In this document: positions 33,473 to 53,016 of the stretch, in pieces | How the letters are laid out: the number at the start of each line of letters is the position of its first letter | How positions within the stretch are numbered: position 1 is the first letter of the stretch | Source of the DNA: an uncultured delta proteobacterium | Lineage (GTDB): Bacteria > Myxococcota_A > Polyangia > Polyangiales > Polyangiaceae | Assembly (NCBI GenBank): GCA_963696385.1 | Contig: CAVOKF010000004.1 | Coordinates: 1-64,000, forward strand | Length of the DNA stretch: 64,000 nucleotides | Direction: 5' to 3' | Notes under the pieces: model-generated | The model's input: only the letters and a program-made list of their open reading frames with translations | What the model was told of the DNA's origin: nothing | Database searches by the model: none | Made by a program: the position numbers and the translations under genes

Positions 33473-33489
33473 TGGTCAATGCGTGACCA
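33473..33489. promoter_or_regulatory. Palindromic GGTCA-N5-TGACC box upstream of virD4
   Basis: TGGTCA-ATGCG-TGACCA preceded by GAAAAC, as at 28681. Confidence 0.35.
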
Positions 33490-35798: not shown

Positions 35799-36265
35799 CC
35801 AAGACCGTCCGTCGCGGCCGCGTACGGCTGCTGCCCTACGTCGATCCGGCCCTCGCTCAGCGCGTCGACCAATTCTGTGCGGCGACCGACGTGACGGTGA
35901 GTGCTGTCGTCGCGGCCGCTATCGGGCAGTACCTCGATGGTACGAGCGACGCGACGCTCGTCTTGCGACGCCTGGACCGGCTCGGCCGCGCCGTCGCTCG
36001 CAACCAACGAGACGTGGAGCTGTTGTCGGAAGCGTTCGCCGTGTTCGTACGTCTCTGGTTTGCGCATACGCCGGCGATCCCCGAAGCTGCGAAGGGCTCC
36101 GTACGCGCGAGCGCCGAGAGCCGGTACCGGCAATTCGTCGAGCACGTCGCCGAACAGTTCTCCGGCGGCCACCGCTTTCTCGACGACTTGCCGCACGAAG
36201 CGATCGGCGACGAAGGCGAGCTCGCCGCGGTGGCCGAATCCGCCGCTCTACAACCCCAAAAGTGA
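35795..36265 (+). CDS. CopG/ribbon-helix-helix protein of Tn4371-type ICEs
   Basis: SAVVAAAI..., RRLDRLGR, EAFAVFVRLWFAHTP, RYRQFVE; ATGA-coupled to traG. Confidence 0.8.
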   Translation: MTKTVRRGRVRLLPYVDPALAQRVDQFCAATDVTVSAVVAAAIGQYLDGTSDATLVLRRLDRLGRAVARNQRDVELLSEAFAVFVRLWFAHTPAIPEAAKGSVRASAESRYRQFVEHVAEQFSGGHRFLDDLPHEAIGDEGELAAVAESAALQPQK

Positions 36266-36432
36266 GCCGGATCGATCCCGACCGTGAGAAGGCCGACCCC
36301 CTTCCAGCGGGGCTGACTGGGGCGGTGGCCGCGTCACCCTCGGGACAGGACCGGGTCACCCGACGCGGATGGCTTTCGCCGTGAAATCCAGTCGCGTGAG
36401 CGTGGCACGAAAATGGGCGTGTTCGAGCGCCC

Positions 36433-38136
36433 GTGGCCGCTCTCGCGCCCGCCTACGTTCCCCGTCGCCCGACCGAAACGGTCCTGTACGGATTGGTGCG
36501 CGAGAATCTGGAATCGTTTCTCGCGTACGCGCGCGAGAACTACGAGGGAGGGCTACCCCGCTACGTGGAAGCGGAGCTGCGCGCGTACTTGAATTGCGGC
36601 GTATTTGCGTGCGGATTTACGCGCTGCCACTGCGACTCATGCGGCCACGACTTGCTTGTGGCTTTTTCGTGCAAGGGAAGATCTCTCTGCCCCAGCTGCT
36701 GCGGCAGGCGTATGGCCAACACGGCTGCCCACTTGGTCGATCGAGTCTTGCCCGACGTCCCTGTGCGGCAATACGTTCTGTCGCTCCCGTACGAGCTTCG
36801 CAAGCTTGCGGCGTTCAAGGCCGACGTTCTCACAGCCCTGGGCCGCATCTTCGTCGAGGCCATCTTTGCCCGCTACCGCGCTCGCGCCCAGCGCGAGGGC
36901 CTCGAGGATGCGCAGTGCGGAGCGGTAACCTTTGTTCAACGCTTCGGCAGTTTGAATCTCAACGTGCATTTTCACGTGTTGGTGCTCGATGGCGTCGTCA
37001 CCCGGGACCCGGACCGTCGTGTGCTCTTTCATCCGGCGGCCGCTCCGACGCCGGTCGAGCTCGAGGTGCTGGTGGACCGCGTGATGAACCGTAGCGTGGC
37101 GTGGCTGCGCCGCCACGGCCATGTGCAGGACACGCCGCTCGAAGAGCGCTCGAACGAGCCGCCGGCGCAGACTGCCCTCGACGCGTGCGCGGACATCGCC
37201 ATGGGCCGCGGCACAGTCGCAACCTTGTCGAACGACGACGACGGGTCGAAAGACGATGACCGCGAGGCGCGGCCCGACGGGCTCGTCGGCGCGGTCGAGC
37301 GAGACGGGTTTAATGTGCATGCCGGGGTCCGGATCGAAGCGGGCGACCATCTGGGTCGCGAACGACTGGCGCGCTACGGCGCGCGACCTCCGCTCTCGCT
37401 CGAGCGCCTTCGTAGGTTGCCCGGCGGGCGGGTGGCCTATCGACTCAAGTACGTCCGTCGCGGCCGAGGCAAGTACAGAATCATGACTGGCCTGGAGTTC
37501 ATGGCCCGCTTGAGCGCGATCATTGCGCCGCCTCGGTATCCGTTGGTGCGCTACAGCGGAGTGCTCGGGCCACACTCGAGCTGGCGACGCGACGTGGTGC
37601 CGAAGCCGCGCGAGACGGCTCCCGCCTGCCACCGCGCGCCTACCCCACCGCTGAGCCCGGCCAAGCCGGTCACCGGCGCAATGACGCATCCGGGCTCGGC
37701 GCTTCCCGGGGCGGCGGCGCCGACAGCGGGCAAAGTCGAGAGTGCTCCGGCGCCGGCCGCCAGTTCCTCGACGAAGACGGGTCTGTCCGCGCTCCCCATC
37801 TTCGCGCATCGGGGCGAGGTCATCCCGCTCACGCCGAATGTGCTTGCTGTCAGCCACTGGGAACGGCTGCTCGGCGGCGCCATCTACGCGGCCTCGCCGC
37901 GCGTGGACTGGCCCACGCTCTTGAAACGAACGTTTGACGTGGACGTTCTGCAATGTCCGAAGTGCCACGGCCGACTGCGGGTGCTCGCCGTGATCACCGA
38001 GCGCGAGCCGGTGCGCCAGGTCCTCGCCCATCTCGGCCTGCCGACCGAGGCGCCGCCCGTCGCCCGGGCGCGCGACCCGACTGACGACGCGCAAGACGCC
38101 GAGCCGTCGGATCAACTCGAGCTGCAGCTCGCGTGA
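36433..38136 (+). CDS. IS91-family (HUH, rolling-circle) transposase with N-terminal zinc-binding domain
   Basis: CG...CxxC...AFSCKGRSLCPSC, RQYVLSLP, NLNVHFHVL (HUH), ERLARYGARP, RYSGVL, CPKC. Confidence 0.92.
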   Translation: MAALAPAYVPRRPTETVLYGLVRENLESFLAYARENYEGGLPRYVEAELRAYLNCGVFACGFTRCHCDSCGHDLLVAFSCKGRSLCPSCCGRRMANTAAHLVDRVLPDVPVRQYVLSLPYELRKLAAFKADVLTALGRIFVEAIFARYRARAQREGLEDAQCGAVTFVQRFGSLNLNVHFHVLVLDGVVTRDPDRRVLFHPAAAPTPVELEVLVDRVMNRSVAWLRRHGHVQDTPLEERSNEPPAQTALDACADIAMGRGTVATLSNDDDGSKDDDREARPDGLVGAVERDGFNVHAGVRIEAGDHLGRERLARYGARPPLSLERLRRLPGGRVAYRLKYVRRGRGKYRIMTGLEFMARLSAIIAPPRYPLVRYSGVLGPHSSWRRDVVPKPRETAPACHRAPTPPLSPAKPVTGAMTHPGSALPGAAAPTAGKVESAPAPAASSSTKTGLSALPIFAHRGEVIPLTPNVLAVSHWERLLGGAIYAASPRVDWPTLLKRTFDVDVLQCPKCHGRLRVLAVITEREPVRQVLAHLGLPTEAPPVARARDPTDDAQDAEPSDQLELQLA

Positions 38137-38202
38137 ACGACCGGCCCCGAGAGCGGCGCGCCGATGCGGCGCCGCGCGGGCGACGTGCGCTTTGAATCTG
38201 TT

Positions 38203-38312
38203 CAAATCGGTTCGCCGATTCAGCGATAACGAACGCCCCTAAGACGCGATATGTTTCCGCGCCCGCTTCCGCGGCTCTTCGTCGACCGACGCACTTTGGG
38301 CTTACTACTCGC
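38203..38312 (+). repeat. ~110-bp dif-like cassette-boundary element, copy A1
   Basis: CAAATCGGTTCGCCGATT...AACGCCCCTAA-GACGCG-ATATGTTTCCG...CTACTCGC. Confidence 0.9.
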
Positions 38313-39798
38313 TGTGACGAGCGGCGAATCCGTGAACGTGAACAGCGTGGACGAGGTGCCCGATTCGGCCTGGTTCACCAACCGACTCGGTGTCCGCCCG
38401 ATGAGCCTCGAGGAGCTGCGGCTGAACGAGTGCAAGAAGGAAGTGCTCCTCGACCCGGATCACACCCCGGACGGTGGGTGGCTCATCGACCAGGGCAAGA
38501 CCAGCGGGTCGACGCCGGGCTTTCGCATGACCGTGCCCGGCAAGGGCAAGTTCCTGGTCAAGGTCGAGGCCACCGGGCTGCCCGAGCGCCAAGTGGCGGC
38601 CACGGTGATCGGCGAGGCCGTCTACTATGCCGTCGGCTACAACGCGACGTGCGAGCAGGCACTGTGGGTCCGACCGTCGATCTTCACCCTGAAACCGGGG
38701 TTGAAGGCCGCACACGGCAACTTCGGGGATTACTACGACTTCGACAAGAAGGCGCTCGACGATCTGTTCGCCAAGTCCAACAAGCACCGCGGGCTGCTTC
38801 GCATCAGCGCCTCCGCGTGGGTGCCGGGATATGTCCTGCAGCAGTTTCGCTACGAGGGGGTGCGAGGCGACGATCCCAACGACGTCATTGCGCATCAGGA
38901 TCGTCGCGAGCTTCGCGCCGCGCGACTGCTCACGGCGTGGATCGATCACTTCGATGCGCGCGAAGGCAATTCGCTCGACACCTGGTTCACCGAAGTGAAA
39001 GGCGGTCCGCCCGACGCGTCGCCCGGTCACGTCGTCCACCTTCAGATGGGCACGAGCGCCGCTCTTGGATCGGTGTGGGACTGGGACCCCATCTCACGAC
39101 GGCTCGGCTACGCCTACGTCGTCGATTGGGGGGACATCGCGGTGGATTTCTTCACGCTGGGGGCCACCACGCGCGTCTGGGAACAGATCCAGAAGGTCCC
39201 GGGCCATGAGATGTTCGGCTACTTCAACGTCAAAGACTTCGATCCCGAGCGGTGGAAAAACGAATACCCGAATCCGGCGTTCTCGCGGATGACCGAACGC
39301 GACGGCGCGTGGATGGCGCGCATCCTGGCGCGGTTCACGCCGCCCATGGTCCGAACCTTGGTCGAGATGGCGAAGCTCGACGACCCAGCCAACACCGATT
39401 ATTTGCAGAGCGTCCTCGACGGCCGGTTGGCCAAGATTGTCGATCGCTACCTCACGCGGGTGTCGCCAATCGCCCAGGTGCGGGTCGATGGGCCGAGCCG
39501 GCTCTGTGGAGTCGACCTCGCGGAGTGGCGCGGCTTGCGCGATCCGTGGGCGTTTCGCTACGAGGCGCGGCTCCTTTCCGGACCGTGGTTGAACGTGGAA
39601 AGGCAACCGGGGGCACAGATCTGCGTGACGCTGCCCCACGTGGCTGCGGACGGCGGTGTCCCGGACGACGCGCCCGCGCGCTACGTTCGCGTGCGCATCC
39701 AAGACGGGGTGGCCACCGGACCGCTCGTGGCGCATCTGTACGATTTGGGGCCGGTGCGGGGCTACCGCCTGGCCGGCCTCGAGCGGCCCGATCGGTGA
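38313..39798 (+). pseudogene. 5'-truncated paralog of the 40931-42670 kinase-like exported protein
   Basis: Begins near NVNSVDEVPDSAWF directly after A1; lacks the ~85-aa N-terminus of the paralog; an ATG inside A1 (38251) is in frame. Confidence 0.75.
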
Positions 39799-39897
39799 CA
39801 TCCCGGCACCCCCCGCGCGAGGCGATCCGATTTTGCCGGTGGGTGCGGGCGCCAAGAGCCGGCCCGCGAGGCGCGCGGGTGGGGGTGTTGGCCGCTC

Positions 39898-40767
39898 TCA
39901 GAATCGTCCCTGCAGCGTCAGCGAACCTCCTCCGGGCGCTGGCGCGACGCCCACCCATACGGCCGGAGCCTCCGCTTTGTGCCGATGAAGGTGCGGCACG
40001 AGAATCCCCACGGCCGATCCTGCTAACGATCCCGCAATGACGTCGCTCGGGAAGTGCTCGCCCGCGCGGACGCGCTCGTAGCTGACGAACGCGGTGAGCG
40101 CCGTGGCGATGCCGAGCGTGATCCACGGGCGAGGCGAGCGGGGCGATCGCACGAAGGCGAGGTACGTCGCCGTCGCGCCGATGGCCGAGACGCCTGCGGC
40201 GTGCCCGGAGAAGAAGGAAAGGCCGAGATCGGTGGAGTTGCAGCTGGCCGGCAGCGTGGTCGCGCCGTTCATCTCGCAGTTCTTGTAGTCGATGGGACGG
40301 GGCCGGCGAACGGCGATCTTGGTGATGTCCGTGAGTGTGAGCGCGAGCGATCCGGACTCCGCGTACATGAACGCGTCGACCAGCAATGCGTCGGTGCCGT
40401 CGCGAAAGCCCGACAGAACGGGATCGACCACCGCGAACCCGATGGCCGTATACAGGCCGATGTTCGAGTACGTCGCCGCGTGCGGATCGATCGTCTGCGT
40501 CACCGCGATTCGGTCGAAAAACAGAAGTTGGCTCACCGAGGCCGTCGGGACTGGGGGTTTGATCTCGCCGGTCCCGAGAACCAGCCCGAGCAAGCCCGCG
40601 AACCCGAAGCCCGTCACCGTCATCACGCCGTCGGAGACCGGGTCGAGGGAGAAGTGCTGTCCTTCCTCGAGGGGCGGGGAATCGGCCCGTGCGACGGACG
40701 CCGACAAGAGGACGGCTCCCAGAAAGCCCAGAGCCACCTGGCGTGACGATGTCGCAAACGTCCTCAT
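39898..40767 (-). CDS. PAP2 family phosphatase
   Basis: KIAVRRPRP, SFFSGH, ERVRAGEHFPSDV. Confidence 0.9.
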   Translation of the reverse strand: MRTFATSSRQVALGFLGAVLLSASVARADSPPLEEGQHFSLDPVSDGVMTVTGFGFAGLLGLVLGTGEIKPPVPTASVSQLLFFDRIAVTQTIDPHAATYSNIGLYTAIGFAVVDPVLSGFRDGTDALLVDAFMYAESGSLALTLTDITKIAVRRPRPIDYKNCEMNGATTLPASCNSTDLGLSFFSGHAAGVSAIGATATYLAFVRSPRSPRPWITLGIATALTAFVSYERVRAGEHFPSDVIAGSLAGSAVGILVPHLHRHKAEAPAVWVGVAPAPGGGSLTLQGRF

Positions 40768-40930
40768 GGTGCTTGAGACGCTGGCGGCACCGGATTGTGA
40801 CGTCTCCGAAAGCCAATCGTGTGCCCACCCGATGGGCACGACGATCGCCTGCACCGCGTGACGCGCCGGCCGCACCGCGCCTCGCGCCGGACGCGAGCGG
40901 CCGCGTCCGATCTCGGCGAGGCGGGACACC

Positions 40931-42670
40931 TCAGGGCTCCGGCCGCTCCACCCCCGCGAGAAAGTACCCGCGTTTTGGGCCGAGATCGTACAAGGCCGCA
41001 ATGAGCGGCGCCTTCGCGACACCGTCGTCGAGGATCACTCGAACATACCGCGCGGGGGACGCGTCGGGCGGACCCCCGTCTCCGGCCACGTGCGGCAGAC
41101 GGACGCAGATTTCGCCGCCGCCATGCAACTCGACCGGCAGCAGGGCCCCGTTCGGCGCGCGGGCGGTGTAACGGAAGCGCGTGACATCGCACACGGCGCG
41201 CGCCTCGGCCAGGTCGACTCCGCAGAGCCGGTCGAGGCCTTCGACGCGCAGCTCGCCAATCGGCGAAAGCCGTGTCAGATACCGTTCGAGGATCCGTTCG
41301 AGCCGTCCTTCGAGCACGCGCACGAGATGCTGCGTGTTTCTCGGATCCGTGAAACGTGCCATCCCGGCAAACGCGCAAACCGCCTCGGGCGTGAAGCGCG
41401 CCAGGATACGAGCCATCCATGCCCCGTCGCGCTCGGTCATGCGGCTGAATGCCGGGTTCGGATACTGCATCCTCCATTGGTCGGGCACGAAGCTTCGGAC
41501 GTCGAAATTCCGGAACAGCTCGAATCCGGGATCGCCGAGCGGTCGATCCCAAGGGCGTGCCGGAATTCCGAGCGCCAAGAAGTCGGCTGCCATGTCGCCC
41601 CAGTCGACGATATACGCGTAGCCGAGCCGTTCGGTCACCGGTACGTGCCCGTAGTCGGGGCCGAGCGCATCGCTCCAGTCCAAATAGTAATGAACGACGT
41701 GACCCGGCGATCCGTCCGAAGCGACGTTCGGGTCGGCAAACCAAGAGTCCATGCTGTTGGCGTCCCGAGAGTCCCAATGATCGATCCACGCGGCGAGCAA
41801 GCGCGTGGCCCGCAGTTCCCTTCGATTCTCGTGGGCGATCACGTCGTTCGGGTCGTCCGGTCTCGTCCCGTCGTAATGAAAGGGGCCCAGAAGGTGCCCC
41901 GGAATCCATGCCGAGGCGCTCATCCTCACGAGCCCGCCACGCCGCGCGCAAGCCGCCAGGACCTGGTCGAGCGCTTTCGCGTCGAAGTCCTTTTCGTCTT
42001 CCAAAGTGCTGTGCCGGAAATGGAGGCCGGGGCTGAGCTTGAGCGCCGACGGCTTGAAGTACACGACTTGCTCGCAGCTCGCGTTGAAGCCGGCGGCGTC
42101 GTAAATCGCGGCGCCCACCACGGTCGCCGCGGTCGCAAGCTCGGGCTGCGCGGTCCCGTCGGCCTTGAACAGGTACTTGCCTTTGCCGGGGATGTTCACC
42201 CGAAACCCCGGAGTCGCGCCGTCCATTTTGCCACGGTCGATGACCCAGAGGCCGTCGGGCGGGTCCTCGGCGATCAGCAAGGACCGGTCGCACGCACCGA
42301 TCGGCACATCGCCCGGGCCCGGAAGGTGGCCGCCGCGCCGATTCGTGAACCACGCCGAATCGGGCACTTCGTCGACGCTGTTGACGTTCGTGGCCTCTCT
42401 CGCGACGGCCAGGGCGAGCGCGTCGGACATGGGGCGGAGCAGGACGTGATCCATGGCCGTCCAGATCTCGGGCACATCGATCGGCACCGGGGCACAAGAG
42501 ACGTGCCGTGGATCGCGCGCCGTGGGCTGGAGGCGGCAGGGCAGCGTTACGGACTGGAGATCCGAGTCTCTGTCCATCGGGGGGCGCAGCGCAAAGCGTC
42601 GCTCGGTCGGCATGCACGCCGACAGAGCGAGCGCCACGCACGCGAAGCGGACTTCATTCACGTTCGACAT
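40931..42670 (-). CDS. Exported lipoprotein, possible atypical kinase-like fold
   Basis: Lipobox LSAC; GATPGF...YLFKAD...PELATAA; HENRRELR...HWDSRDANSMD. Confidence 0.6.
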   Translation of the reverse strand: MSNVNEVRFACVALALSACMPTERRFALRPPMDRDSDLQSVTLPCRLQPTARDPRHVSCAPVPIDVPEIWTAMDHVLLRPMSDALALAVAREATNVNSVDEVPDSAWFTNRRGGHLPGPGDVPIGACDRSLLIAEDPPDGLWVIDRGKMDGATPGFRVNIPGKGKYLFKADGTAQPELATAATVVGAAIYDAAGFNASCEQVVYFKPSALKLSPGLHFRHSTLEDEKDFDAKALDQVLAACARRGGLVRMSASAWIPGHLLGPFHYDGTRPDDPNDVIAHENRRELRATRLLAAWIDHWDSRDANSMDSWFADPNVASDGSPGHVVHYYLDWSDALGPDYGHVPVTERLGYAYIVDWGDMAADFLALGIPARPWDRPLGDPGFELFRNFDVRSFVPDQWRMQYPNPAFSRMTERDGAWMARILARFTPEAVCAFAGMARFTDPRNTQHLVRVLEGRLERILERYLTRLSPIGELRVEGLDRLCGVDLAEARAVCDVTRFRYTARAPNGALLPVELHGGGEICVRLPHVAGDGGPPDASPARYVRVILDDGVAKAPLIAALYDLGPKRGYFLAGVERPEP

Positions 42671-42713
42671 GATGCCCGAAGGGGCCGCTTCGTGACGATG
42701 CGGTAGCGACGCT

Positions 42714-42823
42714 CAAATCGGTTCGCCGATTCAGCGATAACGAACGCCCCTAAGACGCGATATGTTTCCGCGCCCGCTTCCGCGGCTCTTCGTCGACCGA
42801 CGCACTTTGGGCTTACTACTCGC
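42714..42823 (+). repeat. ~110-bp dif-like element, copy A2 (identical to A1)
   Basis: Direct sequence comparison. Confidence 0.9.
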
Positions 42824-43231
42824 TCCCGACGATGACGAGACCGACCGCTGCGACGAGTCCGACCACGACCATGATCGGGTTGTCCAGTGCGGCGCCACAC
42901 CCTCCCAGCATCACGATCCCGCCGAAGAAATAGCAGCCGTTGCGGATCAGCTTCCGTTGCTCCGTGTTCATCGGCCCTCCGAAACGATGCCAACGCTTAT
43001 CGTCGGCCTTGTCAACGGCGGCAGATGCGGGCGCGGGGACCCGAGGTTGGCACCCGCGTGCCCCGTCCACTCGCACGCGCGGCACGCCAGCGAGCAACTT
43101 GCGAACGACAACAGCCGGTCCACTTCGGCAGAGTACGCGTTGCCGCGATTATCGCGCGCGTCGTCCGCCACGCGCCCTCCGCCAGTCATCGCCGTTGACG
43201 TCGCCCGGGCGATCGGCCGACCATTGGGGCG

Positions 43232-44464
43232 ATGGGGGATGAGGAGAGGCGAACGGTTTGGATCCTTGGCGCGGGCTTCAGTCGATCGCTCGGCGGCCCG
43301 CTATTGCCCGACCTGCTTTCATCGGCGACGAATAATTTCGTTTCCTCTCTCTATCATAAAAACAAATTCATTGGGGGCCCCCCCGAGGAGCCCGATGACG
43401 TGTACCGCCGCGCGGCCCTCGCGGTGCGCCGCTTGTACGATAAATACGGGGACACAGCTGACCCCGGAATCCGCTTATGGGAGAATGCGGAAGAGTTTTT
43501 AGACCAGCTAGACGCCGCGGCCGAAAACGAGAGCGCTGCCAGTCGGATTTTCCGACCGATGACCTCCGAGCTCAATAATGCCCCCTGGATTTCCGGAGTG
43601 GAGACCCCGGACCTGCGCGACGCGGCGCGACGGCTCGTTGCCGCAGCGTGTTGCGCGTTCCTGCACGGTGCGAATACGAATGAAGAACGCTGGCAGCCGT
43701 ACCAGGCGTGGGCCGCCGACCTAACGTCGTCGGACACGGTCGTGACGTTCAATTACGACCGGGTGTTGGAAACCCTCGGAGGGTTTGACGTCGTGGTGCC
43801 TGCGCCGCCGGAGGTACTCACCTCGCAGGTCGTCCCGCTCGTGCCGCCGCTAGGCGCTAAGCCGAAAGTCTTCAAGCTACACGGCAGCGTCGATTGGCGC
43901 CGTGAACTAGAGAAGCCGGTAAGATACTTGCTAGCGTCGCCCGAATACGCTCTTGAATGCGATGGCGTAAACATCGGAATCGCTACACCGGGCCCAACTA
44001 AGCGTCTAGCGACTCAGGAATTGAGCCGATTGTGGACCGATGCGTGTGAGCATATTCAGCGAGCCGAGGTAATTGTCTTCGTTGGGTACCGCTTCCCGCG
44101 AACCGATGCGGAAGCACGCGGAACGCTTTTGAAGGCGATCAGGGAAAACAAGTCCCCTCATCTCGAGTTGCACATCGTGCTCGGTCCGGATCGGCGAATC
44201 CCGGACGTCGTCCGGCTTCAACAGCTGCTCCGCTACAGAATGGCGAGCGCGGGCCGGAAGGGGCAACGAGTTTTGCCCCCAAGCGCCCAGAGGATGACTG
44301 CCGCGAAGCCCGCAAACGAGACGCGAAATGATTTTCGGCTAATGACCCACGCCCTCTATGCGGAGGACTTCTTCACCGTGTGGGATCGCGACGTCTTGTG
44401 GCCCCCATCAGAGGGGGTAAGCTCAAACGATCGTGTGACCATCGAGCCGTTGCCGCCCGACTGA
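43232..44464 (+). CDS. SIR2-like domain protein (putative NADase defence effector)
   Basis: WILGAGFS, VTFNYD, FKLHGSVDW, IVFVGYRF. Confidence 0.85.
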   Translation: MGDEERRTVWILGAGFSRSLGGPLLPDLLSSATNNFVSSLYHKNKFIGGPPEEPDDVYRRAALAVRRLYDKYGDTADPGIRLWENAEEFLDQLDAAAENESAASRIFRPMTSELNNAPWISGVETPDLRDAARRLVAAACCAFLHGANTNEERWQPYQAWAADLTSSDTVVTFNYDRVLETLGGFDVVVPAPPEVLTSQVVPLVPPLGAKPKVFKLHGSVDWRRELEKPVRYLLASPEYALECDGVNIGIATPGPTKRLATQELSRLWTDACEHIQRAEVIVFVGYRFPRTDAEARGTLLKAIRENKSPHLELHIVLGPDRRIPDVVRLQQLLRYRMASAGRKGQRVLPPSAQRMTAAKPANETRNDFRLMTHALYAEDFFTVWDRDVLWPPSEGVSSNDRVTIEPLPPD

Positions 44465-44477
44465 CGGTGTCCGGGCG

Positions 44478-44566
44478 GCGAGTAGGCGGCGCAAAGCTTG
44501 TCGGCCGACGAAGAGACGCGGAAACCGCCGCGGTCACATAAAAGGCCTTTGGGGCGCTCGTTGTCA
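44478..44566 (-). repeat. dif-like element, inverted partial copy B1
   Basis: Reverse complement TGACAACGAGCGCCCCAAA-GGCCTT-TTATGTGACCG...CCTACTCGC. Confidence 0.85.
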
Positions 44567-44876
44567 TTGAAAGCGCCGTCCCAATTGAGCGCACGGAAAT
44601 CGTCCCCTTTGGCAACGACATCCTGGCCGGCACGCCCCGGGCGATGCCCTACAGCGGGGTAAGCCGGATGAAGTTTCAGGCGAATGCCGTGGCTGGCCGA
44701 AAGGAGAAGTCTGTCTTGAAGCCCAACTGCACGTTGAGTCTCGTCCCCTCGCCCGAGGGCGTTCTCGCTCGCTGCTCGGAGAAAAGCACCTCGTCGCACT
44801 TGACGGTCACCGATTTGGCTCGTTCTTCGGTGTTGTTGGATGGCGAAGCGCAAGCAAATTCAATCGACCCGGGACT

Positions 44877-46058
44877 TCACTGGCATTCAGCTGAGTTCGG
44901 AGGATTTGCGCCGGTCGCGCTGTAGGACGCACATATGGCCGCTGAGAACGCGCCCGTCACATGGTCAACTTTGACGGTGTTGATTATGTTCTGCGCATTC
45001 CAGGGGCTTAAATTCAGATCGAAGGTCCCTATGATTTCCGATGCCGTTACAGTTGAGACTGTGACGGTACCGCTTACGGACTGCTCGCATGCCGTTGGAT
45101 TGTCGCTTTGGTCGTAGGCGGCACCGTAAAACGCCCCCGCTCCTATCGTCGCCCCCGCTGAGGTTAGGACGTCGAACGTGCCTGGCGTCAACGATGAGTT
45201 TGTTACAATGTCGAGGTACAAGACAGTTTGGTTGGGGGAGGGCCCGCTGTCGTCTTCCGTCCAGGCGTTTCCAGGTCCGCCATCTGGGTTTAATGCGCAT
45301 AAGTCGGCGAGGTTTGCGATGGATACGTTGGAGAGAACGATGCTCGTCACGTTGGTATCGGGAGCTAACCCGGGATTCCCCACGGGGACATTGCCGGCGA
45401 AGGCACTCTGGATGATCAACTCCTGCCCGCCGATCGTGCCAGTAGCGCTGTTCGCGGAGGCTTCGCTCGATCCGTCGGATGCATCGGCGGCATCCGGTCC
45501 TGCGTCACAATTCGGCTCCAGAATGTACGAACATTCGCCGCTGCTCGGAATGCACGAGCCCGGCGTCAATTCGCAAGTCGTTGGCGGAGTCACGCACGCG
45601 GTGGATCCCCCTGTCGCTGTCGTGCAGCCCCCGCACGGATCCTTTACTGTGCAGGTAGTCGCCTCACCATCCGCGTCGCTGGCGTCCGGGGTGCCATCGA
45701 TTACATCGGGCTCGATTACGTCCAATACAGTCGCATCGCGATTGGCGTCTGCTTCCCCGTCTGTGTCCCCATCTGCTTCGCCGTCCGTCGTTGCATCCTT
45801 GCCCCCGTCCAATTCACTCGACAACGAGCTTGAACTGGTCGTTGAGCTTGAACTCGACGACGAGCTTGAAGGTTCAGGGGGCGGCGGAGGCGAAGGGCTT
45901 CCGCAAGCAGCTAGGACCTCAAAATGTGTGGTCACGACCGCGAGTGCGGCGATTCGCCACGGTTCCAGCCTCACGAAATGCCTCCCGCTGGAGCTATCGA
46001 CGCGGAAAACCGACATTGGCGCCAAGATCGCACAAAGTGGACCAGGCTCAGGTGGCAC
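44877..46058 (-). CDS. Hypothetical lipoprotein, Ser/Asp-rich linker and Cys-rich region
   Basis: LAAC lipobox, poly-Ser, DAG repeats; visibly more AT-rich than the flanks. Confidence 0.55.
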   Translation of the reverse strand: MPPEPGPLCAILAPMSVFRVDSSSGRHFVRLEPWRIAALAVVTTHFEVLAACGSPSPPPPPEPSSSSSSSSSTTSSSSLSSELDGGKDATTDGEADGDTDGEADANRDATVLDVIEPDVIDGTPDASDADGEATTCTVKDPCGGCTTATGGSTACVTPPTTCELTPGSCIPSSGECSYILEPNCDAGPDAADASDGSSEASANSATGTIGGQELIIQSAFAGNVPVGNPGLAPDTNVTSIVLSNVSIANLADLCALNPDGGPGNAWTEDDSGPSPNQTVLYLDIVTNSSLTPGTFDVLTSAGATIGAGAFYGAAYDQSDNPTACEQSVSGTVTVSTVTASEIIGTFDLNLSPWNAQNIINTVKVDHVTGAFSAAICASYSATGANPPNSAECQ

Positions 46059-46442
46059 GCTTGCAACAAAATAAGTTCAACAATATTGGAAAAATCGTGC
46101 GAGCTCAGACTTCAGACGGTCCGAGAGCGGACTTGGCGGAGCCTGAATGTGGCACACAAAGCTACATGTGGCGCTGGGCGCTACCTTGTGGCTCCGTGCA
46201 CCACACGTGTGCGGGGGGGCAGTGTCCGCTACCTGGCTTTGATCGGCCACATTCCCCGCTGTACTTCGGGCATGTATCCGTTTCGTACGGCTCCCGAGCT
46301 CTCCCAGGCCATCCCCGGCCCCCCTGTCCTGGCTCCTTGGGCTGTCCGCCGGCTTCAGGCAGCGGCGCAATAGTCATGATGAAGGCCGCCGAGCACGGGG
46401 ATGGCCTCGACCGGGCCAGCATACTTGGCCAAACGGGACTCT

Positions 46443-46563
46443 CAAATCGGTTCGCCGATTCAGCGATAACGAACGCCCCTAAGACGCGATTAAGACGCGA
46501 TATGTTTCCGCGGTGGCTTCCGCGTCTCTTCGTCGACCGACGTGCTTTGGGCTTACTACTCGC
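46443..46563 (+). repeat. dif-like element, copy A3 with an 11-bp internal duplication
   Basis: TAAGACGCGAT is tandemly duplicated in the core. Confidence 0.9.
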
Positions 46564-46640
46564 CAGCGAGCTGCCGTGCTGCTCGTCGAGCGGCTTGCAA
46601 ACCTGCTTGCCACGTCCCCGGACCTGCCGGAGCTACGACC

Positions 46641-47420
46641 GTGACGGTCTTGCGAAACGGCAAAGCGCCGCGCTGGAGCGAGCACGAGGCGTCGAGTGAG
46701 CACTTCGTCGGCGGCATCTCGCCCCTCTGGATGTTCGACTACCAGCTTCAGGGGCTCTTCTCAGTCGTGGAACTCGCGCGAGCCAGGAGTCGAGAGGAGC
46801 CCCACCTCTACGGCGACGTTCTGCGGCGCGCCGCGGAAGTGGCGCTCATCGGCGCGCTCGGCTTCTTCGAGGCGTTTTGCAAACACCAGTTTGCGGCGCT
46901 TTTGACGCTGCATGCCCCTCTGCTCGTCGACTTCGCCAACCGGCGTCAGGAGGCGAGCCTCCGGCTCTCGGCACTCGCTTCAGCCGCCGGAGAACTCGAC
47001 GTCAAGATCGGCTTCATCGTCGCCGAGTCGTACGACTTCGGATCGGCCAAGCAAATCAATGGACTCTTCCGCGATCTCCTCGAGTGCTCGCCGTTGCCGA
47101 AAGATGAGGGGGACGAGCTCGACGCCATCCTTCGCAAGCGCCACCTCATCGTGCACCACGGCGGTATTGTTACAACTGAATCGGCTCGGGCAAAGGCACC
47201 GGTCCTTCCGTCTGGCCAGGCGTTTCGAGACGTCGTCGGGGTCGAGCCCGACGAGTACCACGACATCGCGGACTTCCTGCGGCTCTCGGCCGTCAAGGTA
47301 GCCGTCTGCACGGTGCAAGCCCTCAAGCGTCGCACGCGCGACCTATCTGATCTTGCCGTCGACCGACAGCAAGACGTGGAGCTTCTGCTCAGGGCCGTGT
47401 GGCATCAGCTCGACGCGTGA
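46641..47420 (+). CDS. HEPN-domain protein (putative RNase)
   Basis: FFEAFCK helix, FGSAKQINGLF, RHLIVH (RxxxxH); start approximate. Confidence 0.65.
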   Translation: MTVLRNGKAPRWSEHEASSEHFVGGISPLWMFDYQLQGLFSVVELARARSREEPHLYGDVLRRAAEVALIGALGFFEAFCKHQFAALLTLHAPLLVDFANRRQEASLRLSALASAAGELDVKIGFIVAESYDFGSAKQINGLFRDLLECSPLPKDEGDELDAILRKRHLIVHHGGIVTTESARAKAPVLPSGQAFRDVVGVEPDEYHDIADFLRLSAVKVAVCTVQALKRRTRDLSDLAVDRQQDVELLLRAVWHQLDA

Positions 47421-47449
47421 ACGAGCCCCCTCGACCTTTGGGCCCTGCT

Positions 47450-47683
47450 CTACTTGCGTCGCTTTCGTCCAGGGCCTGCAGGCCATGAAACCTGCTTGGA
47501 GCGTTCGAGCCATCCCTCGGTGACGGCCTCGCGCACCTTCACCCGCAGAAGCTCCTCGGCGGCCTCGGTGCGGTTCTTTCCGAACAGGCCGGTCTGCACC
47601 AGTGCGTCGAGCGCCGAGAGCACCTCGGGCGTCGTCGACAGGTGCAGTTTCTTGGTCCCGACCGAGTTGGGCCCGCGTGCCAT
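47450..47683 (-). CDS. Small ribbon-helix-helix-like regulator
   Basis: LHLSTTPEVLSALDALVQTGLFGKNRTEAAEELLR. Confidence 0.6.
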   Translation of the reverse strand: MARGPNSVGTKKLHLSTTPEVLSALDALVQTGLFGKNRTEAAEELLRVKVREAVTEGWLERSKQVSWPAGPGRKRRK

Positions 47684-47715
47684 GATCCAAGTAGATCCTG
47701 ATCTAGGATCTTGAT

Positions 47716-48163
47716 ATGCTCAAGCCCGTGAGCGCCGATTTGGCCGGCCAGAGGGTCGGATCCCTCGACGATGCGCGGACTGCGTTGGTGCTGCCGCCAC
47801 GTCCCGAACCGCGATCTGCGCGCAGAACGCTGCGCGTCGGCAGCCGCACGCTCACCGTCACGCCGGTCTTCGACACGTACTGGCGCTTCGCCTGCCAGCG
47901 GCAGGAGGTCTTCCACCGGCGAGCCGCGGGCGACCCCCCCGCCGTGGACGGACGATCCCATTCTTGGCGGGCACCGTTTCACGAATGCCTACCGCGCTTC
48001 GGATCGGGTGAGCCAGTTCCTCATCCGCCACGTGCTCTACGCCGGCAGTCAGGACGAAGAGGAGGTTTTCTTCCGTTGCCTGCTCTTCAAGATTTTTAAC
48101 CGGATCGATACGTGGGAGCACCTTAGGCTTCACGTCGGCGAGGTGCGCTGGAACAGCTACTCT
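47716..48163 (+). pseudogene. 3'-truncated DNA base-hypermodification (aGPT-Pplase1/5hmdU-kinase-associated-like) gene
   Basis: FDTYWRFACQRQEVF...PWTDDPIL...FTNAYRASDRVSQFLI...LLFKIFNRIDTW; cut at element A4; frameshift in a C-run at ~47935. Confidence 0.7.
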
Positions 48164-48210
48164 CAAATCGGTTCGCCGCTCGGTGACAACGGAAGCCCCT
48201 AAGACGCGAT
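48164..48210 (+). repeat. dif-like element, left-half copy A4, interrupted by IS4
   Basis: CAAATCGGTTCGCC...GAAGCCCCTAA-GACGCG-AT, then IS sequence. Confidence 0.85.
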
Positions 48211-48591
48211 CATAGGTAGGATCTTTATTTCCCGAGTGATCTCGATCACTTACGTGCATAGTGCACGAATTGGGTAGTCAAAGGCATCGGGGATTCTCTA
48301 GACGCTGTTGTGAGACAACGCGAAAGGAGACCCCCGATGCACGGATCAAACAGTACACGCGCCGGAGTCGGCGTGTATGCGAAACGGCTTACGGAAGTAC
48401 TCGGCGAGGAGCAGGTGACCGCGATCGCGAGACGTAGCGGCTGGCTACGGCGAGTGCGCAAGGTGATGCCGCTGGCGATGGTCGTGGCGGTGCTGTCGAC
48501 GCTCGGGTCGGGCCACGCCAAGTGGTTGGCCGATATTCTGCGGACGTTCCGGAAATTCGCGGGCCTTTCGCTGCGATATAAGCCCTTTCAC
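48211..48591 (+). mobile_element. IS4-family left end and transposase 5' fragment
   Basis: CATAG start; ORF from 48337 with IARRSGWLRRVRK...LADILRTF...YKPFH; cut at A5. Confidence 0.65.
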
Positions 48592-48702
48592 CAAATCGGT
48601 TCGCCGATTCAGCGATAACGAACGCCCCTAAGACGCGATATGTTTCCGCGGGGTCGTCCGCGGCTCTTCGTCGACCGACGCACTTTTGGGCTTACTACTC
48701 GC
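48592..48702 (+). repeat. dif-like element, copy A5
   Basis: Near-identical to A1. Confidence 0.9.
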
Positions 48703-49034
48703 CGAACAGAATCCACGGGCGGTCGAGACTATGCTTCGTGAGCAGCGCGACCACGTCGGTGCATTTGCTTCAGCTTCAGCGCAGCCATGATCGCCTGATA
48801 CCACTCGCTGCCGTACTCGATGCCCGTGTTGCCTTTCTTATCCGAAGACCGGAACGACTTCAGATTGCCGCCGCTTGCGTCGGTGAGCAGGTTGCTGAAC
48901 GCCTCGGCCAGCTTCGCGTCGCGGCTGTCGTGGCTGATGAACACAAGCGGCTTGGAGGACTGAACGAGCGACGATTCGCCGTTCGCCGCCTCGTTTGTCT
49001 TCCCGTTTCCCGCTTCCTGCTTCCGCTTCGCCAT
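48703..49034 (-). pseudogene. 3'-truncated TIR-domain gene
   Basis: VFISHDSRD, FRSSD...GIEYGSEW, DVVALLTKHSLDRPWILF cut at A5 just before the catalytic Glu; one frameshift. Confidence 0.75.
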
Positions 49035-49151
49035 GCCCGCCGCCCCCGGGTGCCGTGATCCCGCACGATCGCACAACCGGACGCATCGGGTAAGCCCTGG
49101 CCAAGATCGGTTCTCGGCATACCCGTCAAGTGTTCAGTATGCTCCCGCCAA

Positions 49152-49345
49152 TGCCCGACAACACCCGTCCGCCGCGCAACCTCCACATCGACGACCAGCC
49201 GAACCTCGGCACCCGCGCGCTGATGACGGCCGTCGACGAGCTGGCCAAGGCGCACCGGCTTGCCGGAGCCCGCGTCGCCTACAAGCGCAACGCCAAGGGC
49301 GAGCACGTCGTCGCGGTCATCTTCACCGGCTTCGAGCGCACGTAG
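49152..49345 (+). CDS. Small hypothetical protein
   Basis: Compact ORF with host-like codon usage; no motif recognised. Confidence 0.35.
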
Positions 49346-49498
49346 CGGCCCGAATCCGTATTCCGGTGCGCCGGAGGCGAAACCCGGTTTCGCCATGCGG
49401 CCCGCATCGGCGCGCAGAGCCCTGCAGCCAAGATAGGCGATCGCTCCGATCGGAACCCGGGTTCCGGTCCCGGTTGGTCCGCCGACGGCCGCTCCGAC

Positions 49499-49577
49499 TG
49501 ACAACGAGCGCCCCAAAGGCCTTTTATGTGACCGCGGCGGTTTCCGCGTCTCTTCGTCGGCCGACAAGCTTTGCGCC
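49499..49577 (+). repeat. dif-like element, partial copy B2, cut by IS66
   Basis: Identical to B1 from TGACAAC to TTTGCGCC. Confidence 0.85.
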
Positions 49578-49638
49578 GTAACCGTCCGGCCGGGCCCGCA
49601 CTTGATTTAGGGGCAGAAAGCGCGGTGCGATCGGGGGC

Positions 49639-49959
49639 ATGGGACGCGAGCGTCGGTCGCGAGTCTGGTGGTCAAGCCGAGTGGCGCGTTGGCGGCGCAG
49701 CGGGCTTACGGCGCGGCAATTCGCCGAGAGCGAAGGGCTTTCGGTGTTCTCGCTTCGGTGGTGGTCGAGCCAGTTGGCTCGTGATAACCGTGCGGAGCAC
49801 GGTGCGTCGGCGATCGAGCCGATCGAGATCACCGTCGAGGGGCGTCAGGCCGGCCGCGAACTGGTCGAAGTCGTGGTCGGCGCGGCGACGATCCGCTGCG
49901 AGCGGGGGACGGACGTCGGATACATTGCGGCGCTGGTTCGTGCGATCGCGGGTGCATGA
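49639..49959 (+). CDS. tnpA: IS66 accessory protein TnpA
   Basis: WRRSGLTARQFAESEGLS...LRWW HTH. Confidence 0.8.
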   Translation: MGRERRSRVWWSSRVARWRRSGLTARQFAESEGLSVFSLRWWSSQLARDNRAEHGASAIEPIEITVEGRQAGRELVEVVVGAATIRCERGTDVGYIAALVRAIAGA

Positions 49960-50321
49960 CGGTGTTCGGTTTCTCGCCTCACGTTCGCGTGTACCTCGCG
50001 TCGCAGCCGGTCGACATGCGTGCAGGCCACGACAGTCTGTTCGCGATCGTGAAGAGCTGGGACCTGAATCCGTTCAGCGGGGACCTGTTTGCGTTCGTTG
50101 GGAAACGACGAGACCGGGTGAAGATTTTGGTGTGGCACCGCGGGGGATTTTTATTGGTCTACAAGCGGTTGGAAAGAAATCGATTTCGGATCCCTGCGAT
50201 CCAGCCGGGAACGCGGACGGCGATGCTCGATGCGACGCAGCTGGCGATGTTGCTCGATGGCATCGACGTCCAACACGTTCAACGCCCCGCGCTGTGGCAG
50301 CCTCCGGGTCTGGCGCGCTGA
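49956..50321 (+). CDS. tnpB: IS66 accessory protein TnpB
   Basis: PVDMRAGHDSL, FAFVGKRRDRVKIL, YKRLE, LAMLLDGID. Confidence 0.92.
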   Translation: MTVFGFSPHVRVYLASQPVDMRAGHDSLFAIVKSWDLNPFSGDLFAFVGKRRDRVKILVWHRGGFLLVYKRLERNRFRIPAIQPGTRTAMLDATQLAMLLDGIDVQHVQRPALWQPPGLAR

Positions 50322-50428
50322 GCCCCGTCGCGGCCCTGTGTGTCCATTGGACACTTTGTCGCTGAAATCGTCGTCGGCCCCCACGCTAAGCCTTTTAATC
50401 TGCGCGGCGATGGTGCACGAAAAGGATC

Positions 50429-52033
50429 GTGGTTGATGCGCGAGACGTCCGCATCGCGAAGCTTGTGGAGCTGCGCAAGCGCGCCGAAGAGCGTGAGCGA
50501 CAACTGGGCGAGATCGTCGCGCAGCAGCAGACGCTGATCGCTGCGCAGCAGCAACTCATCGCCGAGCTGCAGCGTCGACTGTCCGAGCAAGATGCGCAGC
50601 AGAAGGCGCGCGCCGAAGAGATGAAGGCCGAGATCGACCGGCTGGAGCGGCAACTGTTGGGCCCGAAGACCGAGCGGACCCACGTTCCGCCGATCGACGC
50701 CGAGCTTCGCAACACCGAACCGATGACCGACGAAGAGCGCGCGCGCCGTCGCGAAGAGATTGCACGCAAGCGACGCGAACGCGCACTCGCGAAGAACGCC
50801 GCGATGGCCGTCGAGCAGGTCGAGTACCCGGTACCCGAATCGATGAAGCCGTGCGCTCATTGTGGCGGCGTGCATGCGCGAGCTCTCGAGCCCGAGCAGA
50901 GCACGACGTACGAGTACAAGCCGGGTCACTTCATCCGTCGTGTGCACAAGCGGCAGAAGCTCGCATGCAGCTGCGGCCAGTCCATCGTGACGGCGCCGCC
51001 GCCTCCGAAGCTCGTCGTCGGTGGACAGTACGGCTTCGGGTTCGCCGCATTCCTCATCGTGGAGAAGTGCGCCGACTCGATTCCCATTCATCGCATTGAG
51101 AAACGATTCGGCCGACTTGGGATCCCGATCTCGCGCAGCACGATGAACGATCTCGTTCACAAGGCTGCCGAGATTGTTCGACCGCTCGTCGCTCGACTGC
51201 AGACGCGAATCGCGGCTCTCGAAGTCGTGCTCGCCGACGAGACCTCGATGCGCTTGCAGGACCGTCCCAAGCGCGGCTTTGTCTGGGTGTTTCACGGTCA
51301 CGATGAAGTCAGCGGCGGCAAGCTTGTTCTGTATGCCTTCGCCGTCGATCGAAGCGGCGACACGCCGGCGAAGATCCTGGGTGGCACTCGCGGCACTCTC
51401 GTGGTGGACGGATACACGGGGTACAACCAGGTGACCGACCCGCTCGGACGCGCGCGCGGCGGATGCTGGAGCCACATGCGCAGAAAGCTCTTCGAGGCGC
51501 GCTCCACCCGTGCGGCCGAGGACATCGACCCCGCGCTCGGGATCATCCGCGAGATCTTTCGTGTCGAACACGACGCGACCGAGCAGAAGATCGTCCGCAC
51601 TCCGGCCCATCTCGAGCTGCGAAATGCGCGTAGCGCTCCGCTGGTCGAGCAATTCTTTCAGTGGGCCGAACACAAGAAGGTCGAGGTCCTTCCGAAGGGC
51701 CCGCTCGGCGAGGCGCTCGGTTACGCGATTAACCAACGCGCTCGACTCGAGCTTTTCTTGTCGGATCCGCGTATTCCGATGCACAACAACGGCTCAGAGT
51801 CCCGCTTACGCGTTATTGCTCTGGCTCGCCATACGTACCTTTTCTTCGGACATCCACTCGCGGGCAAAAACTTCGCGGGGCTCTACTCGCTCGTCGGCTC
51901 CTGCATCGCCAACGAAGTCGAGCCGACGGAGTATCTCACCGACGTACTTGCGCGAGTCCGCGACGCAACGACCGACGAGCAGCTCGACGCGCTGCTACCC
52001 GATCGGTGGGCGCCCCACGGTCCAGCGCCCTGA
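50429..52033 (+). CDS. tnpC: IS66 transposase TnpC
   Basis: Coiled coil, CAHCG, ADET, VVDGYTGY, CWSHMRRK, NNGSESRLR, LLPDRW. Confidence 0.93.
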   Translation: MVDARDVRIAKLVELRKRAEERERQLGEIVAQQQTLIAAQQQLIAELQRRLSEQDAQQKARAEEMKAEIDRLERQLLGPKTERTHVPPIDAELRNTEPMTDEERARRREEIARKRRERALAKNAAMAVEQVEYPVPESMKPCAHCGGVHARALEPEQSTTYEYKPGHFIRRVHKRQKLACSCGQSIVTAPPPPKLVVGGQYGFGFAAFLIVEKCADSIPIHRIEKRFGRLGIPISRSTMNDLVHKAAEIVRPLVARLQTRIAALEVVLADETSMRLQDRPKRGFVWVFHGHDEVSGGKLVLYAFAVDRSGDTPAKILGGTRGTLVVDGYTGYNQVTDPLGRARGGCWSHMRRKLFEARSTRAAEDIDPALGIIREIFRVEHDATEQKIVRTPAHLELRNARSAPLVEQFFQWAEHKKVEVLPKGPLGEALGYAINQRARLELFLSDPRIPMHNNGSESRLRVIALARHTYLFFGHPLAGKNFAGLYSLVGSCIANEVEPTEYLTDVLARVRDATTDEQLDALLPDRWAPHGPAP

Positions 52034-52416
52034 ACCACTGGGGCGCAGCGCAACTCCCGCAATCCCCGAACGCGTCGCGCGTCGTCACGTCGATGCAGAG
52101 TGTCGCCCGAGTCCGCGACGCGACCCCAGCACGACGTGCCGCTATCCATACGAGCGCAGCGCCTCGCCTCTGCCCCCCTGAACCACTGGCCTGAAGTCGC
52201 CAAGCATGGTCGCGCTCTGTTGCGGCCGCGGCAACGACGTCAACGCGACGATGCTCTTGGCGTGCTCGCCAACAATCGCGACGAGTACTGGGACAAGAAG
52301 CTCGCCGCCGATACTTGGCAGGGGCCTCATCGCGGGAAAGGCCCGCCCCCTGAACCATTCTTGGACTCAGGTCAACAGCGGGGCGCGCCGGACGCTTACG
52401 TGGAAAGGGTGCAGTT

Positions 52417-52906
52417 GTGACCGATGTAGAAGCTACAGCAGCCGCGAGAATCGCACTTCGGTGTCTCATCGAAGAGACAGCTTCAATGGCTGCCGCAAAC
52501 AGCATGACGCCCGAGGCCCTGCGAGGCATCGCCTATTATGACATGTCACGCGATGCCCCGATTCTTGCGCTGGACGCATTTGGAAAGGCAACACAGGTAG
52601 TCACCTCGCTTCCTGAGTTTTTGGCGCGTTTTGACGCCCAGGACGTCACGCGTATTGTCATACAGTTTGTATACGAATATTACGCCCGCAGTAACAGCAT
52701 CCTTTACGACGATGTTGTCTTTGAAGCCGTGTGGTCTGACTTCACGGCAGAAATCCAAGAGCCCCTGTGGGTGACGCGAGGAGTCGCCAACGTCAGAAAC
52801 TTCACGAGCGATAACCACGCACTGGCGCTGGGGGACGGCGTAGCGATCCGAGGGCGAAGTAACGACGAGCTCACCGCCCTGGGTTTTAGCGGTGCCGTTC
52901 TGGACT
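52417..52906 (+). pseudogene. 3'-truncated hypothetical gene, possibly the N-terminal part of an Apea-like HEPN protein
   Basis: More AT-rich ORF whose frame runs into element C; family assignment weak. Confidence 0.4.
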
Positions 52907-53016
52907 CAAATCGGTTCGCCATTACAGCGACGGCGGAAGCCCCTAACGGGTTATATGTGACCGCCGCGGTTTCCGCGGCTCTTCGTTGATCGATACGCTT
53001 TCGACCGGCTACTCGC
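52907..53016 (+). repeat. dif-like element, divergent copy C
   Basis: CAAATCGGTTCGCC...GAAGCCCCTAA-CGGGTT-ATATGTGACCG...GCTACTCGC, same 110-bp length. Confidence 0.88.

Follow-up and report, generated by a model that had tools for sequence, protein, structure and literature searches.

A 110-nt repeat in the cargo region of a Polyangiaceae conjugative element is probably the terminal module of an IS91/ISCR-like rolling-circle element

A repeated unit between virD4 and the relaxase gene

The stretch of DNA considered here (the window) comprises 64,000 nucleotides from an uncultured member of the Polyangiaceae (GenBank assembly GCA_963696385.1, contig CAVOKF010000004.1, positions 1 to 64,000). 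It contains a conjugative element in whose variable region, between the type IV secretion system (T4SS) coupling protein gene virD4 and the relaxase gene, a noncoding unit of 110 nt, the module, recurs between unrelated segments of DNA. The original prediction, made from the sequence of the window, took these repeats for a new gene-capture system based on site-specific recombination at a dif-like core. Our analysis points elsewhere. The first copy of the module lies at the end of an insertion sequence (IS) of the IS91/ISCR family whose transposase gene adjoins virD4. We think it likely that the unit is the oriIS-side terminal module of this rolling-circle element (36322-38312; Table 1) and that the arrays arose via one-ended transposition.

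Repeat search, alignment and profile agree on the eight copies reported at the outset, six of them complete and two truncated rather than the five complete copies first counted. Of the flanking genes named earlier, virD4 and the relaxase gene were confirmed, each split over two frames, and copG was not. The first virD4 frame matches positions 1-277 of the Pfam profile T4SS-DNA_transf and the second positions 273-454, with TraG-D_C matched too. Either the conjugative element is decaying and has acquired frameshifts in virD4 and the relaxase gene, or the split frames are due to sequencing errors.

Table 1. Features of the conjugative region of the window; module positions are those of the 110-nt unit
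Feature	Position	Strand	Remarks
virD4-type T4SS coupling protein gene	32789..35798	+	two overlapping frames, 32789-35410 and 34869-35798
Conserved open reading frame, family unassigned, between virD4 and transposase gene	35417..36247	-	no Pfam/NCBIfam match
IS91/ISCR-family element, ~1,991 bp including 110-nt terminal module	36322..38312	+	copy comparison
Y2 HUH transposase gene, 567 amino acids from GTG start, intact	36433..38136	+	Pfam
Internal end-like motif GCGACGTGCGCTTTGAATCTGTT, abuts module left boundary	38180..38202	+	
Module copy 1, attached to IS; conserved backbone stops here	38203..38312	+	positions 1-110
Cargo segment 1	38313..42713		5'-truncated lipoprotein gene, PAP2 gene (minus; Pfam), diverged inverted lipoprotein paralogue
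Module copy 2, complete	42714..42823	+	positions 1-110
Cargo segment 2	42824..44477		reading frame with weak SIR2_2 match
Module copy 3, complete, inverted	44478..44587	-	positions 1-110
Module copy 4, complete, 11-nt internal duplication	46443..46563	+	positions 1-110
Module copy 5, cut by IS fragment	48164..48210	+	positions 1-48 only
IS4-type DDE insertion sequence, 381-nt end fragment	48211..48591	+	at least 15 other genome copies match
Module copy 6, complete, 1-nt insertion	48592..48702	+	positions 1-110
Module copy 7, right side cut by IS66-family element	49497..49577	+	positions 20-100
IS66-family insertion sequence	49578..52399	+	Pfam DDE_Tnp_IS66, E 7.8e-71
Module copy 8, complete, last before relaxase gene	52907..53016	+	positions 1-110
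RlxS-like relaxase gene with MobA/VirD2 and DUF3363, in two frames	53877..55549	-	

How widespread is the module? A profile built from six window copies was run with nhmmer against the whole Polyangiaceae genome (6.94 Mb in 8 contigs), giving 93 matches; because their E-values reach 1e-33, a chance origin is excluded. Matches begin at model positions 1-3 in 57 cases and end at positions 108-110, keeping an intact right end, in 69, while 42 of the 93 span the model from one limit to the other. The module is thus, as had been claimed, a small unit present at many loci. Its copies are clustered, 85 of them having another match within 20 kb, and are found mostly near contig ends and along the entire 144-kb contig C2. 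One terminus is constantly CAAATCGG and the other CTACTCGC, and column entropy is maximal immediately outside these two sequences, falling at both ends. Entropy profile and flank alignment bear out the fixed asymmetric ends noted before, with neither terminal inverted repeats nor target-site duplications at the modules (aligned: 42 full modules and their flanks; unique flanks: 56 on the left, 66 on the right). Identification as a miniature inverted-repeat transposable element was rejected, since the module lacks both.

Within these limits the copies have a mosaic structure in which sequence types of the left, middle and right parts reassort. A short palindrome, CCGCG-N6-8-CGCGG, occupies the middle, and by column entropy its spacer is among the more variable stretches. 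A scan of 30-60 kb against Rfam with E up to 1 gave zero matches. A coding role was considered and rejected: ATG is directly followed by TGA in some subtypes, and across 69 copies no reading frame stays consistently open past the right end, in agreement with the noncoding character first assigned to the unit. Nor does any consistent reading frame or gene follow downstream of it. In copies 1 and 2 a module-internal ATG opens a signal-peptide-like frame. In subtypes with ATGTTTCC (38251-38314), this in-frame ATG and a hydrophobic leader containing RR are joined to the 5'-truncated lipoprotein gene, a fusion that may be accidental given the ATG TGA of other subtypes. Tandem end structures were seen at two places: at C2:140750-140880 the last 18 nt of a module (CTTTGGGCTTACTACTCG) are repeated immediately after it, and at C4:1140304 a module is followed at once by the first ~25 nt of another.

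The module as part of an IS91/ISCR-like element

What is the module a part of? The original prediction had overlooked a transposase gene lying directly before copy 1 and matching both Pfam Y2_Tnp (PF04986; E 2.5e-23, 83.5 bits against a cut-off of 20.9) and Zn_Tnp_IS91 (PF14319; E 3.3e-17, 62.7 bits against 26.3). Its best NCBIfam match, at a score far below the curated cut-off, is the ISCR element clade Ia family transposase (E 4.4e-84, 282.8 bits), and it shares 35-37% identity with the plasmid transposases of ISCR1 and ISVsa3 (ISCR2). The HUH motif and a catalytic tyrosine pair are used as criteria for the IS91/ISCR family. Here the HFH/HLH motif (H179, H181) is invariant in all six aligned relatives, and AYRLKY (YxxxY) is present in five of the six, with the second tyrosine invariant. 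Judged by its sequence, the enzyme is a distant member of the IS91/ISCR family that falls outside the named clades.

The stop codon of the transposase gene lies 66 nt before copy 1 and 176 nt before the module's right end. Two intact copies of this gene occur in the genome, besides one frameshifted and one interrupted copy and several fragments, and every copy, full or partial, that retains its 3' end has a module ~70 nt past the stop. Copies on C6 and, at its end, on C4 share a block with the element at 92.6-97.2% identity, and a third copy, on C2, is interrupted. This block begins at 36315/36322, and its last position, 38312, is exactly the one at which the module ends on the right. The left end is provisionally placed at 36322 by copy comparison alone. 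At a locus in a Polyangiaceae metagenome-assembled genome (L001) the order virD4, reading frame, transposase gene and module recurs at 84-90% identity; the block is shared there at 90%, and its homology likewise stops exactly at the right end of the module. A scan of genome contigs with the transposase gave three loci, only L001 at full length. The reading frame between virD4 and the transposase gene has homologues (49-57% identity) in the same position in L001 and in genome G006. Abutting the module on its left is a motif similar to the right end of the module itself (CGACGTGC..TTTGG), and a 25-nt flank type, GGGCGACGTGCGCTTTGGATnTGTT, stands upstream of seven full modules in the genome. Element 36322-38312 ends with copy 1, so the 110-mer is essentially the end of an IS, an outcome the original prediction had named as fatal to it. 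The unit belongs to an IS91/ISCR-family element as its terminal module, and the assertion of a categorically new system is unsupported.

Is this arrangement peculiar to one genome? The DNA downstream of ten related transposase genes from other genomes (46-93% amino acid identity) was read. All ten have the motif ...YTTG-N6-7-G(T/C/G)T followed by a stretch that starts with CA(A/C)N; the starts are CAAA, CAAT, CACT, CACA, CAAC or CAAG. The module measures 109-110 nt in eight of them, 100 nt in one, and ~154 nt, with an uncertain end, in one. In the first five relatives read, a palindromic stretch, the junction motif and a module ending in CTAC(T/C)C(T/G)C were found; the remaining five keep the junction motif and have more varied ends (CTACGCGC, CTACACGC, CCTACCCCC, GATACCC). 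Because the sequence varies with the transposase lineage while the length is kept, the module is not simply a preferred target of unrelated IS. It is an integral, length-constrained part of this element group, differing in sequence with the lineage of the transposase.

The modules of the ten relatives are too diverged for BLASTN. Of 40 relatives searched by BLASTN, only G003 had real copies of the window module. This tally includes the unpublished genomes G010 and G042, on which no specific claim rests. G035 and G038 were rejected as carriers, their matches being marginal ones of 27-29 nt. When relatives were searched with their own modules, G006 gave four identical and five diverged (75-76% identity) full-length copies, G012 four and G011 two. 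The solo modules of these three genomes have the same nucleotide-precise boundaries and form arrays downstream of the transposase gene. In G006 the order is virD4, reading frame, transposase gene and module, with the next modules 2.4 kb, 0.7 kb (inverted) and 11 kb on.

The end of the module also resembles the oriIS ends of named ISCR elements. Compared over 19 positions with the ISCR1 end, GTTTATACTTCCTATACCC, its right end, CTTTGGGCTTACTACTCGC, agrees at 11 and the end of the G011 module at 13. The oriIS end of ISCR1 was read from a plasmid record as GGTTTATACTTCCTATACCC, and that of ISCR2, likewise from a plasmid record, as GCGTTTATTCTTCCTATAC. An internal end-like motif, GTTTG...CTATCAGG, was seen in ISCR1 as well (L032 2441-2470, NZ_OR257470.1), ~55-80 nt after the stop codon and ~155 nt before the terminal oriIS motif. 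The two-motif layout may be general in ISCR-like elements.

Captured segments and the origin of the arrays

Where do the segments between modules come from? That the unit separates unrelated segments in the variable region of the conjugative element was correctly seen from the start, and at least some of these segments are copied from elsewhere. Window positions 38314-40825 match C7:715376-712864 at 92.7% identity, and the match opens inside a lipoprotein gene, ~85 codons past its start. G003 has the orthologous lipoprotein locus with an identical start point; the array of the window was not found in that genome, which has only the chromosomal lipoprotein locus, IS copies and modules. The first segment of G006, segment A, reproduces 2.38 kb of a locus found in a single conserved context in G016, G014, G005 and G003. 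What was copied is part of a UvrD-helicase/PD-(D/E)XK nuclease gene, truncated on both sides, with breakpoints ...TCGC|CCAG... and ...CCAC|GAAG.... Within the genome, module-free paralogues define 19 distinct right-flank and 8 left-flank junctions. For the three modules in which the sources of both flanks are known, the flanks derive from different loci in every case. Because no module shows both flanks from one sequence, the modules are joints between unrelated stretches of DNA, and chromosomal loci were the source of some of these, copied with breakpoints that fall inside genes.

Two features of the cargo may be added. The first segment holds inverted, diverged paralogues of the lipoprotein gene (38314-39798 and 40931-42712) around the PAP2 gene, the second having 45-59% amino acid identity to the C7 copy, and these two paralogues account for the long inverted repeats in the window. 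The reading frame of cargo segment 2 (43199-44464) matches SIR2_2 at 23.7 bits, under the cut-off of 24.5, and may be defense-related.

The flanks of the modules are not random. A pyrimidine stands at -1 in 53 of 56 left flanks, and C or T at +1 in 62 of 66 right flanks; paralogues place these biased bases in the flanking DNA rather than in the module. Left flanks end in GC (18) or GCT (13). On which side, then, is DNA captured? The left-flank bias favors one side, while the first base of the right flank and the CAAN starts favor the other. Capture to the left of the module is the IS91 convention; the GC/GCT bias, which is like the module end TCGC, fits capture to its right equally well.

A mechanism can be proposed by homology with IS91, IS801 and ISCR. 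The transposase would nick at the right end of the module and copy one strand. Should copying be halted at the end-like motif left of the module, a 110-nt miniature would be released; should it read through, flanking DNA would be carried along by one-ended transposition. The units would insert preferentially beside existing module ends, where ...TCGC|C fits a preferred ...GC|C site, and such insertions would build arrays of segment plus module in the cargo region of the element, which conjugation could then spread. Solo copies have exactly the boundaries of the module, and by analogy with IS801, for which such products were demonstrated experimentally, we infer that they are miniature right-end derivatives. 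Elements of the IS91 family are described as having two different ends, neither terminal inverted repeats nor target-site duplications, and insertion next to a tetranucleotide; failure of termination in 1-14% of events takes adjacent DNA along (PMC13181058). In its natural host IS801 has produced right-end miniatures of 229, 360 and 679 nt, each bounded by a tetranucleotide like that of the IS left end, and full copies with 290-1431 nt of recruited DNA (PMC3189936, Bardaji et al. 2011). In ISCR1, the variable DNA is reported to lie on the oriIS side (PMC6218425), and we observed this directly as well. Gene capture, as first proposed, survives in an ISCR-like form and not by way of core recombination.

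Several observations weigh against this account. The transposase scores far under the curated NCBIfam cut-offs (282.8 against 925 bits for ISCR clade Ia, 97 against 125 bits for IS91). Neither a transposition event nor a circular form nor an empty site turned up. The empty-site alleles named as a check in the original prediction did not appear, a within-genome search for empty sites or simple insertions giving duplicated filled sites only, and no module of the genome has both flanks on one contiguous sequence elsewhere. Contigs of four metagenome runs on 37600-53200, whose longest pieces are at most 2.3 kb, break at modules, and none of these short contigs spans one; the joints listed have sides of 20-49 nt and link one module copy to another. 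The IS91 tetranucleotide (C/G)T(T/C)(G/C) beside oriIS, of the CTTG, GTTC or GTCC type, is not evident, nor is any 4-nt consensus (one source breakpoint in G006 has GAAG, CTTC on the opposite strand), and the GC/GCT bias of the left flanks is not predicted by the IS91 model. Single strands of the module show no conserved fold and are not clearly stabler than shuffled sequence (five diverged modules, both strands, z -2.5 to +0.9). Finally, the IS801 authors judged most genomic IS801 fragments to be rearrangement products and not one-ended transpositions (PMC3189936).

The last point raises the question of whether the solo copies and arrays are passive scars, left by deletion or by homologous or illegitimate recombination around an element that does have IS91-like ends. 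The mosaic structure of the copies, whose left, middle and right types reassort, speaks for this, as do the richness of the region in other IS and the IS801 study's view of most genomic fragments as reorganization products (PMC3189936). Set against it are the nucleotide-precise boundaries (57 copies starting at 1-3, 69 ending at 108-110), the recurrence of such exact boundaries in the diverged modules of G006, G012 and G011, hence in four genomes in all, and the conservation of the 110-nt length in eight of ten relatives; the pyrimidine bias of the flanks is likewise not expected of random breakage. Passive rearrangement is plausible for some copies and unlikely as the explanation of all.

Could the module instead be an independent structured repeat, regulatory or of the repetitive extragenic palindromic type, that draws insertions, the IS91-like element at the left edge being only one of them? 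Modules plainly do draw other IS, at least three types of which lie inside them at recurrent positions: the IS4-type DDE element at 39-48, with a 10-bp duplication, the IS110-family element at ~9-18 and the IS66-family element near 100. The IS-attached modules of the genome are moreover of different sequence subtypes. This reading nevertheless appears very improbable, for in other genomes elements whose transposases are only 46-69% identical each have a diverged module of their own, with distance and length unchanged, no Rfam family matches, and no consistent frame or downstream gene follows the module. Still less credible is joining of two copies at a dif-like core by a Xer- or integron-like tyrosine recombinase that would excise and stack the intervening DNA. 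In its favor stands a single conserved unit between unrelated segments, mostly in one orientation and with the short palindrome CCGCG-N6-8-CGCGG in its middle. Yet a scan of 35 open reading frames from 29.9 to 63.5 kb gave no match to a tyrosine or serine recombinase family, the unit lies physically within the IS91/ISCR-like element and differs in sequence with the transposase lineage, the center of the supposed core ranks with the more variable parts of the module, and the captured fragments cut inside genes, unlike integron cassettes. Core recombination as originally postulated is therefore not sustained, and a rolling-circle origin by one-ended transposition remains the reading we favor.

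The other IS of the region merit a brief description. The IS4-type element is ~1.47 kb long, the transposase of a full copy matching Pfam DDE_Tnp_1; its flank matches lie at 15-17 genome loci, and it recurs inside modules at 39-48. One copy (C8:878370-879964, L030; compare window 48164-48591) has the 10-bp duplication AACGGGTTAT, a pattern suggesting that the element inserts preferentially at this site of the module. An element of the IS110 family (DEDD_Tnp_IS110 plus Transposase_20; C2:21300-23640, L031, and five further loci) abuts modules at ~9-18. It adjoins modules in at least six copies, which fits sequence-specific targeting of the module. The IS66-family element has two further genome copies at 99.6-99.8% identity. 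Elsewhere in the window, Ser/Thr protein kinase genes lie on both sides of the conjugative region (30753-32375 and 61504-63459), and a 0.6-kb tandem duplication occupies 55791-56385 and 56366-56951 (85.8% identity).

Why would a conjugative element harbor such a device? It is conceivable, though we hold it doubtful, that the Y2 enzyme and the 110-nt module have long resided in a family of Polyangiaceae conjugative elements as a device for loading cargo. They would build arrays of fragments copied from the chromosome, each closed off by a module, and so be a rolling-circle analogue of the integron. The arrangement virD4, reading frame, Y2 gene and module, at a fixed backbone position and diverging with the backbone, might on this tentative idea reflect something other than a chance IS landing. 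Were it true, ISCR-type capture at the oriIS side could be dissected in a natural system. Gene capture is widely attributed to ISCR elements, and the reason why captured DNA lies on the oriIS side is not obvious. According to one account, transposition has not been demonstrated experimentally for any ISCR element (PMC6218425). The lineage described here supplies many natural joints, with 93 modules in one genome and cognate families in at least three further genomes. Source loci can be identified as well, and a conserved end-like motif stands inside the element exactly 110 nt before its end. It thereby becomes possible to test directly how an ISCR-like enzyme initiates, how it terminates and which target rules it follows, and rolling-circle capture would be seen to shape the cargo of integrative and conjugative elements (ICEs) outside clinical Proteobacteria.

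Comparison with known systems

The array recalls integrons and pdif modules in that a short conserved unit is repeated between unrelated segments on a mobile platform. Unlike those systems, it has no IntI or Xer-type recombinase among the 35 reading frames around it, and its segments, of 0.4-4.4 kb (11 kb in G006), contain several genes or fragments in both orientations with gene-internal breakpoints. The module ends CAAATCGG and CTACTCGC do not fit the attC pattern RYYYAAC...GTTRRRY, so that the early verdict that this is not an integron holds. A dif or pdif site, acted on by XerC/D, is 28 bp long, with two partly palindromic 11-bp arms and a 6-bp center. In the module only a GC palindrome of 5-6 bp with a variable 6-8-nt spacer is present; dif and Xer of the host were not located.

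A behavioral likeness exists to the Helitrons of eukaryotes, which have a Y2 HUH rolling-circle enzyme, asymmetric ends and no target-site duplication, and which give rise to many short non-autonomous derivatives and capture gene fragments with arbitrary breakpoints. The system of the window belongs to another kingdom and has no fused helicase domain, and membership is not claimed.

Closer parallels are found in IS801. Its miniatures and the modules of the window are alike contiguous fragments that keep an intact right (ori) end and have neither terminal inverted repeats nor target-site duplications, and in both cases flanking DNA is recruited alongside; the IS801 transposase is reported to be able to act in trans (PMC3189936). 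Unlike IS801, one size class (110 nt) dominates here, bounded by a conserved internal end-like motif and conserved in length in relatives down to 46% amino acid identity, and dozens of copies have diversified into subtypes, their mobility being predicted only. Solo modules start with CAAA or CAAT, whereas the tetranucleotides of IS801 are GAAC, GGAC, CAAG and CGAC; the module starts of the relatives are similar to the IS801-type CAAG and mostly not identical.

The closest named transposases are those of ISCR1 and ISCR2/ISVsa3. Differences from the ISCR elements lie in a score far under the clade cut-off, in the Myxococcota host, in cargo that does not consist of antibiotic resistance genes, and in the repeated solo ori modules between successive segments, an arrangement not found in those parts of the ISCR literature that were at hand. 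The features held in common are an oriIS downstream of the gene, a similar terminal motif and variable captured DNA abutting the oriIS end, and ISCR2 is described as located mainly within ICEs. We regard the system as a variant of known ISCR-like gene capture and not as a new mechanism: an element that resides in a conjugative element and whose 110-nt ori module is discrete and proliferates.

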